From contig NZ_JAHRYQ010000002.1 in NCBI RefSeq assembly GCF_020622065.1, forward strand, positions 234,232 to 298,231: a stretch of 64,000 nt of DNA. The letters run 5' to 3'. The translations under genes were made by a program, and so were the position numbers. This document shows positions 12,089 through 15,000 of this stretch, piece after piece (positions within the stretch are counted from its first letter, which is position 1; every line of letters starts with the position of its first letter). The notes below the pieces were generated by a model. That model was not told where the DNA came from. It searched no databases and worked only from the letters and a program-made list of their open reading frames with translations. This DNA is from Geothrix sp. GTDB lineage: Bacteria > Acidobacteriota > Holophagae > Holophagales > Holophagaceae.

Positions 12089-15000
12089 TTATAGAATAAT
12101 TCCACCAAACATCCAAGTCTGTAGGGCAATACCGAAATGTCCCACAAAACCCATACTGGGATTAGTGCGCGGACGATTTGGAACACCTCCTCTGAATGGT
12201 AGATCTCCCATACTTCCACCTCTGCCAGGTCGCAATTGGAAGTGGAAGTGTGGACCACTCGACGATGAAGACGGATGAAGTTTCTCATCCAGGCCAAACT
12301 GGGCACCTGCCCTCGCCCCATCAGCCATTGCCTTTTTCGGATCTTTTGCATTGTATCTTATATCCACCGCAAGTCCCTCATAGTGTGGACTCCTGGTGGA
12401 ATGGACCCCATTGGTAGTCGCTGTGACTGTCACACCTTTCGGGAAGTTATCACCTGATTGCTTCACAAACTCCCTAATGAATCCATCCAGGTTATCCGGT
12501 AGAGGGGTTGGAACTTTGCCGGTTGTCTTGAAATCCCCATCCAACGCCTGCCTCCACCTAGGGGTGAAAGAGATATCCCTATCGGAGCCATGAGTGTCAG
12601 GTATGGGTCCGAGGTCGCCATTATTTGTTTGTGCCGTATGGGTTTCAGGTTTTCTCGCTTCCTGCCCCTCCGCGGCATTACTCGCCCCTTCGCTCCCGGC
12701 ACCATTCGTCCCCCGAGTCTCGCTATCGGTTGAAATTGCATCCGCCAGGTATCCCATGATTCCGGACCCGCCGCCAATGGCGGTGCCGCCCGACACGCCA
12801 AAGATGTCCCAGTCCATGGGGTTTGACTGCATGGACATCAGCTGGTCTTGTGCTGCCTTCAAATCTGACCCGAATGCGGCCCGTCCATCCGGGTCTGTCT
12901 TCGTCACGGGATTGTTCGTCACATAGTTGTAGAGGTTCCAGGATTCGGGATCATCTTTGGTCTGGTCGTAGACGGGGTCCACTTGGGCGAATTTCCCGTA
13001 GACGGGAAGGTATTCCCTAGCCTGCATGTAGATCGCCTCACTGTCAGGATCCTCCTCGTGGTTGGTGAAGCGACGAAGGGCCGTTTTCCCCCAGCCGACC
13101 ATCCGCTCGCCGAAAGGAAGATTCTTGGATCGGCCCACGATCGCCCCCAAGGCATCGGTCATCACCGAGGGGCTCCCCACCTGGTCCGACTGGATGAACA
13201 TCGTTCCCACGCCGGGTGAATCCTCCGATAGTTCCTGCCCGAAACCATAGACGATGGTTCGCCTCCAGACCAGGGCTCCGGGAGCTCGCGCCATGACCGT
13301 TACGGTGGCGGTCACGGCTCCAACCAGATTCCTGGCGGTCAGCGTGTAGGTGGTCGTCGCCGCGGGCGACTGCTCGAAGCTGTTCCCCGTCACGGGCACA
13401 CCGTTGATCTCAAGGCCATCGGCTTGGCTCACGGACCACCCCAGGGTGGTGAGCCCTCCCGGCAAGACTTCCTGCGGGTCCGCGTAGAAGTCCTCGATCA
13501 TGGGCAATCCGGCCTCCACCACCACGGTGACCGAGGTACTGACCGAGCCCACGCCATTGGCGGCCCTCAGGACATAGGTCGTTGTCGCTGCGGGAGACAC
13601 CACCAGGCTGTTCCCCGCAACCGGCCCGATCCCCTCAAGGGTGAGCGAGGTGGCGTTTGTGACGCTCCAAGTCAGGGTCGTACTCTGTCCCAAAGCGATG
13701 GTGCTGGCCGTCGCTGAAAACTCGGTGATGCTTGGGGGCGCTGGCGCATTGACCGCCACGGTCACCTGCGCGGTGACGCTCCCTGCAGCATTCGTGGCCG
13801 TCAGCGTGTAGGTCGTGGTCACCTTCGGGAACACCTTGAGATGCCCCTTCCCTGCCACCGCGCCCACACCCTGGTCGATGGAAAGGCGGGTGGCTCCGCT
13901 CGATTTCCAACTCAGGGATGCGCCTTCTCCCGGAAGGATGCTGGCCGGACTGGCGGCGAGGCGGGTGATAGAGGGCTGAGCCAGCACCCTGACCACGACA
14001 GAATCGGCGGAAGCCCGATATCCAGCGGCTCGCGCCCTGAATATCACGGTGTAGCTGCCAGCCTGGGTGAAGGCATGGCTTGTCCTCGTGCCAACCGCTC
14101 GGCTGTGATCGCCGAAGTCCCAACTGCAGGCAGTGCCGAAGGTCGTCTCTCCCGTGAAGGCCACGCTGCTTCCGGGCGCCACGGTGATGGTCGTGGAAGG
14201 TTGCAGGATGGTGGCGCCGGCCGCTGGGTGACGGGTGCGCCCCAAAGTCGTTGTCGATAGGTATTTGGGAGGGCTAATCGGTGCGGGCACGGAAAATTGA
14301 GCCAAGGGCTCCCGGCCGAAACCATAGACCGTGTAATCGATGCTCCCGTCGGCGCGCATGCGCTTGAAGCGAAGGCCTGATGCCTCTAGCAGATAGGAGG
14401 TTCCATTCTCCTTCACCACCCGCCCCGAAGGATCGTAGAGCCAGGAGGCCAGCGCATTGGCGGTACCCGGATAGGCAAACACCTGGCTTAGGCGCCCCAG
14501 CACATCGTACTGACGCCCCGTATCGTAGGTGCCCATGGTCGTGGCCATCGCGGGACTCCCCTGGCTCAGGGCCACGAGGGCACCCGGGAGATCGTTGCCA
14601 ACCATGGAATCGGCCCGCCAGGCGCGAAGCTCCGAAGGCTGGAGGCTGCCCGGTTCACCCTCCGCATAGACGAAATTGGACTGGATTCGGTTCCCGAATG
14701 GATCGTAACCGAACCACTGGTCGACCCGTTCTCCATGGATCCCTACCACGCGACTGGCGCTGAGCCGTTGGAGTTCGTCATAGCTGAAGACATCATCCCC
14801 GCGGCTGAGCATCAGCCCCCCCGCCGACCATGTGATGGCGTTCGTTTCGACCACGCCACCGGGAGCCGCATGCTGCGTCAGAGCCAGCTCATCCTTGTCC
14901 AAGGTCGAGAGCGTGGTGGCGCCGTTGCCGAGGATCAAGGTGTTCGTCACCGCGGTACCTGCAATCTGGTCGTAGATCATCACCCCCCGGAGATTGCCAT

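Follow-up and report, generated by a model that had tools for sequence, protein, structure and literature searches.

What does the C-terminal tip of an RHS polymorphic toxin from Geothrix sp. do, and in which compartment would it act? The gene in question lies in a stretch of 64,000 nucleotides (contig NZ_JAHRYQ010000002.1 of NCBI RefSeq assembly GCF_020622065.1, positions 234,232 to 298,231), which we call the window and whose own numbering is used below. An original prediction, made from the letters of the DNA, held that the tip carries LAS/M15-type zinc-peptidase motifs and cleaves peptidoglycan. We computed the RHS architecture of the protein, the similarity of its tip to the LAS fold, the conservation of the catalytic set, the structure of the cassette and the synteny with exported partners. 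The results make it probable that the gene encodes an RHS toxin with a zinc LAS peptidase tip, which would act in the periplasm by cleaving peptidoglycan and would be paired with an exported immunity partner. The parts of the locus needed first are the following (aa, amino acids).

12089 to 18748, minus strand: RHS polymorphic toxin gene, one uninterrupted open reading frame (ORF) of 2219 aa, stop codon TAA at 12089-12091
12881 to 13117, minus strand: RHS-associated core (TIGR03696) ending in DPDGR (aa 1952-1956, 12881-12895)
12536 to 12880, minus strand: linker, aa 1957-2071 (115 aa)
12188 to 12535, minus strand: predicted LAS-fold (Hedgehog-N/M15-like) zinc-peptidase toxin domain, aa 2072-2187 (116 aa)
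12092 to 12187, minus strand: C-terminal tail of 32 aa with a hydrophobic end
11550 to 12074, minus strand: candidate cognate immunity gene (174 aa)

The tip of the RHS protein has a predicted LAS fold

The 2219-aa protein has the two features that mark an RHS polymorphic toxin, YD/RHS repeats and a core ending in DPxG[LR]. Pfam returned RHS_repeat (E=1e-16) and PKD, and NCBIfam returned YD_repeat_2x and Rhs_assc_core (TIGR03696) at aa 1878-1955, with 57.5 bits against a cutoff of 32.5. DPDGR is the expected autoproteolytic release site of the RHS core, as judged from what is known of the RHS family. The region after it, 12092-12880, corresponds exactly to aa 1957-2219, and every string quoted from it in the original prediction was found in its place. 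That prediction divided the region into a Gly/Ser/Thr-rich linker of ~100 aa, a module of ~160 aa and a hydrophobic tail. The linker is there, with an enrichment that is modest (34% Gly, Ser and Thr, versus 27% in the whole protein); it is shorter in a Holophagaceae RHS protein (locus L007) and absent from most members of the tip family described below. The folded module is smaller than proposed, about 116 aa, and the last ~32 residues were modeled at low confidence, with a predicted local distance difference test score (pLDDT) of 50 to 56. The tail does end in the hydrophobic GHFGIALQTWMFGGIIL (aa 2203-2219, 12092-12142), but nothing in it beyond one Trp was conserved in close homologues. A function as a membrane anchor was rejected on these grounds, and no function was attached to the tail.

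Two motifs mark the folded part. The first, RSPHYEGLAVDIRY at aa 2119-2132 (12353-12394), contains the zinc-ligand motif H-x(6)-D as H2122-x6-D2129. The second, GPHFHFQL at aa 2165-2172 (12233-12256), contains the H-x-H motif as H2167-F-H2169, which lies on the predicted strand 101-105 of the AlphaFold2 model. E2155 is located at the end of the strand before the H-x-H strand in the model; the pairwise HMMER alignment was offset by a few residues there. The zinc ligands are predicted to be H2122, D2129 and H2169, and the catalytic residues H2116, E2155 and H2167.

The AlphaFold2 model of the tip, built from an alignment of 39 sequences, had a mean pLDDT of 83, with values above 90 through the core, and a predicted template modeling score of 0.74. 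When this model was compared with the PDB by Foldseek, every match with an E value below about 0.15 was a LAS-fold protein. The top matches were the N-terminal domains of Sonic, Indian, Desert and fly Hedgehog (Shh, Ihh, Dhh and Hh), with probabilities of 0.9 to 1.0, template modeling (TM) scores of 0.43 to 0.47 and E values from 4e-3; the identity of the tip to Hedgehog domains was 15 to 22% in the Foldseek alignments. They were followed by a Streptomyces zinc DD-peptidase (1lbu), Escherichia coli MepA (1u10) and the endolysin LysECD7. Among the viral models of BFVD, Foldseek found phage cell-wall hydrolases, Peptidase M15/M15A proteins, a murein endopeptidase and tape-measure proteins, with E values down to 1e-5. 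A profile of the tip family searched against PDB sequences agreed with the structural comparison. It matched Sonic hedgehog at E=1.7e-4 and placed H2116, H2122 and D2129 on Shh H135, H141 and D148; PMC6027127 gives three zinc ligands, among them H141 and D148. Structure prediction, Foldseek and the profile-to-PDB search thus support the assignment of the tip to the LAS fold.

The original prediction compared the motifs with those of VanY, VanX and M15 enzymes. A first motif of that type (SPHYEGLAVD) is present, as is E2155-x2-H2158, in which H2158 is a His in 93 of 151 family representatives. No VanX or VanY structure was found among the Foldseek PDB matches to the tip model. The assignment to the fold is supported, and the tip appears closest to Hedgehog-N and to LAS proteins of M15A/MepA type, not to VanY or VanX in particular.

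The catalytic set is conserved in a large family of RHS tips

No family in Pfam, NCBIfam or PADLOC matched the tip above threshold, and a word-indexed homology search with the tip alone returned only 3 relatives. The family became visible only when HMMER was run exhaustively with a profile of four sequences, which gave 325 representatives (clusters at 50% identity) at E<=1e-3 and 77 at E<=1e-10. The earlier statement that the domain matches no toxin family thus holds for the curated libraries, beyond which there is an RHS tip family of this size. In most of the profile hits the match was at the extreme C terminus, and all eight of the long hits that were scanned were RHS proteins. The gene context was read in 66 genome and metagenome loci, where the domain came in most cases directly after the RHS core motif DPxGL, within about 10 residues. 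The clusters were mostly from soil and peat metagenomes; the named genomes were metagenome-assembled genomes (MAGs) of Acidobacteriota (Holophagaceae, Terriglobia and "Ca. Acidoferrum") and one of Fibrobacteria. For the clade of the window tip, the nearest named genomes were Holophagaceae and other Acidobacteriota MAGs.

Conservation was examined in 151 representatives with pairwise identities of no more than 50%, whose consensus is VTSTxE..H.PgtPHgrGeAaDiRyP…CGAxfGLDExxHPS…GPHiHiQ..PG..GGrGDLP. The predicted zinc and catalytic residues gave the following counts.

H2122 (first His of H-x6-D): conserved in 149 of 149
D2129: conserved in 149 of 150
E2155: conserved in 149 of 151
H2167: conserved in 148 of 151
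H2169: conserved in 149 of 151
H2116: conserved in 138 of 148

Because the catalytic set was kept across the 151 representatives, chance motifs can be ruled out and a live active site is argued for; the S-x-H-x-x-G-x-A-x-D and H-x-H motifs pointed out earlier proved to be conserved family-wide. Four Cys columns were also kept in most members, consistent with disulfides that would form outside the cytoplasm.

Distant relatives were found in other settings. One is internal in a phage tape-measure protein (TMP_3; P0221), one is internal in a 3368-aa protein with a histidine-phosphatase domain (P0186), and one, also internal, is part of a protein (P0218) bearing a fungal "Goodbye" STAND domain. 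The last passes the HH_signal gathering score and is a bridging match; among the 39 members used for the model, two or three matched HH_signal or Peptidase_M15_3 weakly. These contexts suggest that the fold has been recruited in several conflict contexts. Two adjoining RHS C-terminal fragments occur on a "Ca. Acidoferrum" contig (L011), at 5525-6094 and 6688-7431, both on the minus strand; one carries a LAS tip and the other a Tlde1 (L,D-transpeptidase effector) domain that scores over its Pfam threshold. A small ORF encoding a signal peptide comes after the LAS tip. The contig looks like an array of cell-wall-directed tips.

An exported protein is encoded directly downstream of the tip

The ATG of the 174-aa gene lies 14 nucleotides after the RHS stop codon, with GGGAG ahead of it, so that the gene appears to be translationally coupled to the RHS gene. 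Its product has a signal peptide (MFAPLAFSVLLAIAST), in line with the earlier view of a secreted protein, as well as a conserved DCxxC pair and a single FG-GAP-type Ca2+-loop motif (GDFNGDGKKDFAVAV). At least 73 homologues were found. Among the 60 full-length ones, 56 start with a signal-peptide-like sequence that has an AxA-type site at its end. Homologues stand directly downstream of toxin homologues in L001, in L002 and in 7 further metagenome loci, and thus in independent loci. Others are orphans, and these frequently lie in arrays of small ORFs that share a strand. The synteny with the toxin and the widespread orphan copies lead us to expect an immunity role for this family, and the 174-aa protein is the candidate cognate immunity protein.

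Other sub-clades of the tip have different small signal-peptide proteins downstream. Counted over distinct ORFs directly downstream of LAS tips, 42 of 43 were signal-peptide-like, versus 8 of 40 control ORFs scored with the same heuristic, and the 43rd looked signal-peptide-like by eye. Together with the Cys columns kept in most relatives, these exported proteins point to the periplasm as the site of action.

The 174-aa protein was modeled by AlphaFold2 with a pLDDT of 87, and it had no match above threshold in Pfam, NCBIfam or PADLOC. An XAC2610/Tsi-like identity was considered and rejected: the score against XAC2610_fam (NF047539) was 13.6 bits versus a cutoff of 35, the profile-to-PDB search gave just FG-GAP Ca2+ loops of integrins and esterases, and Foldseek offered no support.

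Three other observations concern the pair. The closest homologue of the toxin (65% identity) is part of an RHS gene in L001 (8187-11043) that has collapsed. What is left, in shifted frames, is an N-terminal fragment with a signal peptide, followed by a few YD repeats, the tip and the immunity gene; either an internal deletion or an orphan cassette would give this arrangement. L002 (1-11365) has a tip-immunity pair without an RHS body, on a putative mobile element with MobA/MobL, Rep_1, primase and integrase genes, and its tip is truncated, ending right after the H-x-H motif. In L012 to L016 and on the P0016 contig, immunity homologues with no toxin nearby lie within runs of small same-strand ORFs that had no Pfam hits. 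These arrays resemble orphan-immunity islands, that is, acquired interbacterial defense.

The tip and its partner lie in a low-GC island

Further features, at and beyond the 3' end of the RHS gene, are the following (GC, guanine plus cytosine).

10000 to 12600, no strand: low-GC island, GC fraction 0.43 to 0.52 versus 0.63 to 0.70 in the flanks, comprising the toxin tip and two genes, the immunity gene and the one next to it
10161 to 11399, plus strand: NTP_transf_8 nucleotidyltransferase-fold gene (412 aa; Pfam PF12281, E=3e-39), convergent with the immunity gene
9009 to 10148, plus strand: frameshifted remnant of an IS1595/ISXO2-family transposase at the island edge, in at least three frames

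Horizontally exchanged RHS tip/immunity cassettes usually show up as such a drop in GC, and the tip, the immunity gene and the NTP_transf_8 gene appear to have been acquired horizontally as one cassette. Identity to the L007 Holophagaceae RHS protein was 29% in the shell, 43% in the core and 50% in the tip. The gap between tip and shell, the GC break and the syntenic partner are what is seen where an RHS toxin has a variable tip and a cognate downstream gene. The NTP_transf_8 gene had no match in PADLOC and is probably a passenger outside the toxin system. In the transposase remnant, Zn_ribbon_IS1595 (E=6e-9) and DDE_Tnp_IS1595 (E=1e-4) were detected by Pfam on separate ORF fragments.

Architecture of the rest of the RHS protein

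Two more features of the RHS gene are as follows.

18575 to 18660, minus strand: probable Sec signal peptide of the RHS protein (RESGLGVGWMVVLACLQAFAGAEG), read off the translation
13286 to 14281, minus strand: PKD/Ig-like block, aa 1490-1821 (~330 aa), after the last YD repeats and before the RHS-associated core, with Pfam PKD/PKD_4 at aa 1521-1586

The start of the gene as listed is a GTG, and the true start may lie further in. A related N-terminal RHS fragment in L001 has a clear signal peptide, MVNPMSLRSFLPVLLSCFAAVTALAQS, at its start. The RHS protein is thus probably exported by Sec. In a BLASTP comparison with the L007 protein, aa 1489 and aa 1822 of the window protein aligned to adjacent residues; the PKD/Ig block is therefore an insertion relative to L007. 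We speculate that it is an externally displayed module, perhaps one that binds the surface of the target. About 5 kb upstream of the RHS gene, at 23870-26497 on the minus strand, there is a gene for an 875-aa secreted-type Met-zincin (DUF4953/DUF5117/DUF5118), which is probably unrelated.

Weighing the evidence and the alternatives

Several results weigh against the peptidoglycan-cleaving toxin. The Foldseek matches in the PDB were modest (E value of 4e-3, TM score of about 0.46). The best Pfam score, to HH_signal, was 12 to 13 bits versus a cutoff of 22.1, and the thresholds of Peptidase_M15_2, Peptidase_M15_3, Peptidase_M15_4 and VanY were not reached. In the tip model, the convergence of H2122, D2129 and H2169 on one metal site is suggested by strand order, and E2155 can be equated with Shh E177 by strand order only. 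Since, to our knowledge, Hedgehog-N has no accepted physiological peptidase substrate, the top structural match is no proof of peptidoglycan cleavage. The clade of the window lacks the four Cys that most of the family has. No PAAR, VgrG or type VI secretion system (T6SS) gene was found among the ORFs scanned in the window around the RHS gene, so that no secretion apparatus is at hand, and neither a PAAR, VgrG or T6SS domain nor a TcA or TcB domain that would link it to a delivery system was present in the RHS protein or the scanned neighbor genes. Finally, the model of the 174-aa protein had no significant structural neighbor by Foldseek, the best PDB match being an integrin blade at E=0.13, and the XAC2610 lead failed as described above.

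Four other explanations were considered. The tip could be a periplasmic LAS metallopeptidase with another lethal substrate, such as lipid II, nascent stem peptides, or a protein of the periplasm or outer membrane like Lpp. The fold and the residues indicate a zinc peptidase and nothing narrower, the nearest structures are Hedgehog domains, for which no peptidoglycan substrate is known, and LAS enzymes vary widely in bond specificity, from VanX, VanY and MepA to the phage L-Ala-D-Glu peptidases. However, every bacterial or phage LAS enzyme that we know to have been characterized acts on D-amino-acid-containing cell-wall peptides, the viral matches in BFVD are virion or lysis hydrolases of the cell wall, and the same RHS arrays carry Tlde1, which is also directed at peptidoglycan. 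We regard another substrate as unlikely.

The LAS domain could instead be an accessory module with which the RHS machine breaches the wall, comparable to tape-measure or TagX-type hydrolases, and not the killing payload. Phage tape-measure proteins were indeed among the distant family hits, and the RHS protein appears to be Sec exported with no T6SS found nearby. Yet the domain stands where a polymorphic tip would, after DPxG[LR] and with nothing beyond it; it belongs to a low-GC cassette and comes with its own exported partner, whose gene also circulates in orphan form. As tip position, low-GC cassette and orphan-forming partner are hallmarks of a toxin-immunity pair, such a pair is favored, and there is only a slim chance that the domain is a wall-breaching module.

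It is more doubtful still that the domain is a pseudo-peptidase, a binding module without catalysis whose motif resemblance is vestigial. Drosophila Hedgehog has lost the motif and kept its function (PMC6027127), and the curated peptidase models were not reached by the tip. Against this, all six predicted metal and catalytic residues were present in 93 to 100% of the 151 divergent representatives, which would be unexpected for a dead site. A lysostaphin-type M23 peptidase in place of an M15/Hedgehog-type one is hardly credible and was rejected: the best single-sequence PDB match was an M23 protein (9gy1, E=0.007, over sGPHlHFevrPG), but this likeness is limited to the H-x-H strand, the first motif of the tip is H-x6-D versus H-x3-D in M23, and no M23 structure appeared in the Foldseek lists for the PDB or BFVD.

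Proposed mechanism

For the peptidoglycan-cleaving RHS toxin that we favor, we infer autoproteolysis, periplasmic action, a peptidoglycan substrate and inhibition by the partner, in the following order. As in other members of the RHS family, the tip would be encapsulated by the YD-repeat shell, and a cut of the core at DPDG|R would free the linker and the tip. Delivered to a neighboring diderm cell, the tip would act in the periplasm. There, Zn2+ held by H2122, D2129 and H2169 would, together with E2155, H2116 and H2167, hydrolyze a peptide bond in peptidoglycan stems or cross-links, and the weakened sacculus would lead to lysis. The 174-aa periplasmic protein, whose gene appears to be translationally coupled to that of the toxin, would shield the producer, probably by occluding the active site.

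Significance

The tip and its partner appear to form a new toxin and immunity family within the well-known RHS paradigm, common in Acidobacteriota-rich metagenomes. A large family of toxin tips (325 clusters at 50% identity) has had no curated model, at least one new family of exported candidate immunity proteins is now defined, and RHS payloads would now include the LAS zinc-peptidase fold. In little-studied phyla, the cell wall may often be the target of Sec-dependent RHS toxins. For a payload that acts in the periplasm, the outer membrane of the target would be the only barrier, which would make it a simpler model for T6SS-independent RHS entry.

The closeness of the sequence to Hedgehog-N is also a lead on the origin of that domain, one weakly constrained by the present evidence. 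An origin in polymorphic toxin systems has already been proposed for Hint and SuFu. It is a long shot that these RHS tips represent an abundant, unrecognized Hedgehog-N/LAS toxin lineage near the stock that gave the animal Hedgehog signaling domain. If this were true, the Hedgehog N-terminal domain would join Hint and SuFu, the pathway would owe all three of its toxin-system-derived parts to polymorphic toxin systems, and the Hedgehog zinc site would be the relic of a peptidoglycan-cleaving toxin.

Comparison with known systems

The LAS/Hedgehog-DD-peptidases (MEROPS clan MD: M15 DD- and LD-peptidases, M74 MepA and Hedgehog-N) have the H-x6-D and H-x-H zinc motifs and an alpha/beta sandwich fold in common with the tip, which also shows a conserved Glu before its H-x-H strand; the tip and Shh are identical in the HSxxSxHYEGxAVDI spacing. 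In contrast to these enzymes, the tip is about 20% identical to any solved member and below all Pfam thresholds, and it has an 11-residue loop (HPSxxSxGP) between the Glu and H-x-H and a conserved C-terminal extension, PGxxGGxGDLP. It serves as an RHS tip, whereas its LAS relatives are housekeeping enzymes or phage lysins.

The bacterial Hedgehog-like proteins (bacHh; Roelink 2018, PMC6027127) are reported to be more than 50% identical to the N-terminal domain of Shh and to have kept its Ca2+ sites. They too carry a C-terminal Hedgehog/DD-peptidase-type domain on a larger bacterial protein that is predicted to be periplasmic (PMC6027127). The window tip is about 20% identical to Hedgehog domains, and bacHh neither serve as RHS tips nor have an immunity partner that has been described. 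The possibility that the tip is itself a bacHh was rejected, with 15 to 22% identity to Hedgehog domains versus the more than 50% to the Shh domain that would be required.

The X-Tfi immunity proteins of XAC2610/Tsi type resemble the 174-aa protein in being small and exported, in having an FG-GAP-like Ca2+ loop and in being encoded beside a cell-wall toxin gene. With the 174-aa protein below the NF047539 cutoff and without a structural match in the PDB, this is a resemblance only.

M15 or zinc DD-peptidase domains are known as T6SS cargo, in Acinetobacter baumannii Tpe14 (PMC6833914), Neisseria LysM1 (PMC10210955) and S. rhizophila Tse2b (PMC13340143). Like the window tip, these are interbacterial toxins with exported immunity partners, and they are predicted to cleave peptides of peptidoglycan in the prey periplasm. 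They are stand-alone, LysM- or SH3-fused cargo, recognized by Pfam as M15 and delivered with VgrG, whereas the window tip is RHS encapsulated, has no LysM, is not recognized by Pfam and appears to be Sec dependent, with no T6SS found nearby.

No LAS-, M15- or Hedgehog-like RHS tip, nor the 174-aa immunity family, was found described in the open-access literature that was searched. The catalogue of Zhang et al. 2012 (PMC3482391) mentions no LAS tip; VanY and LAS do not occur in it, and Hedgehog is mentioned for Hint and SuFu only. That catalogue does predict RHS tips directed at peptidoglycan (NlpC/P60, L,D-peptidase/Tlde1, FlgJ-like and glycosidase). With these predictions, the M15 domains among T6SS cargo, the Tlde1 tip beside the LAS tip in L011, and 325 family representatives common in Acidobacteriota metagenomes, the original description of a cell-wall metallopeptidase as an unusual RHS cargo was overstated. 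The toxins of that catalogue (PMC3482391) share with the window system the YD shell, the core, a peptidoglycan-directed tip and a linked immunity gene, and they differ from it in using catalytic folds other than LAS.

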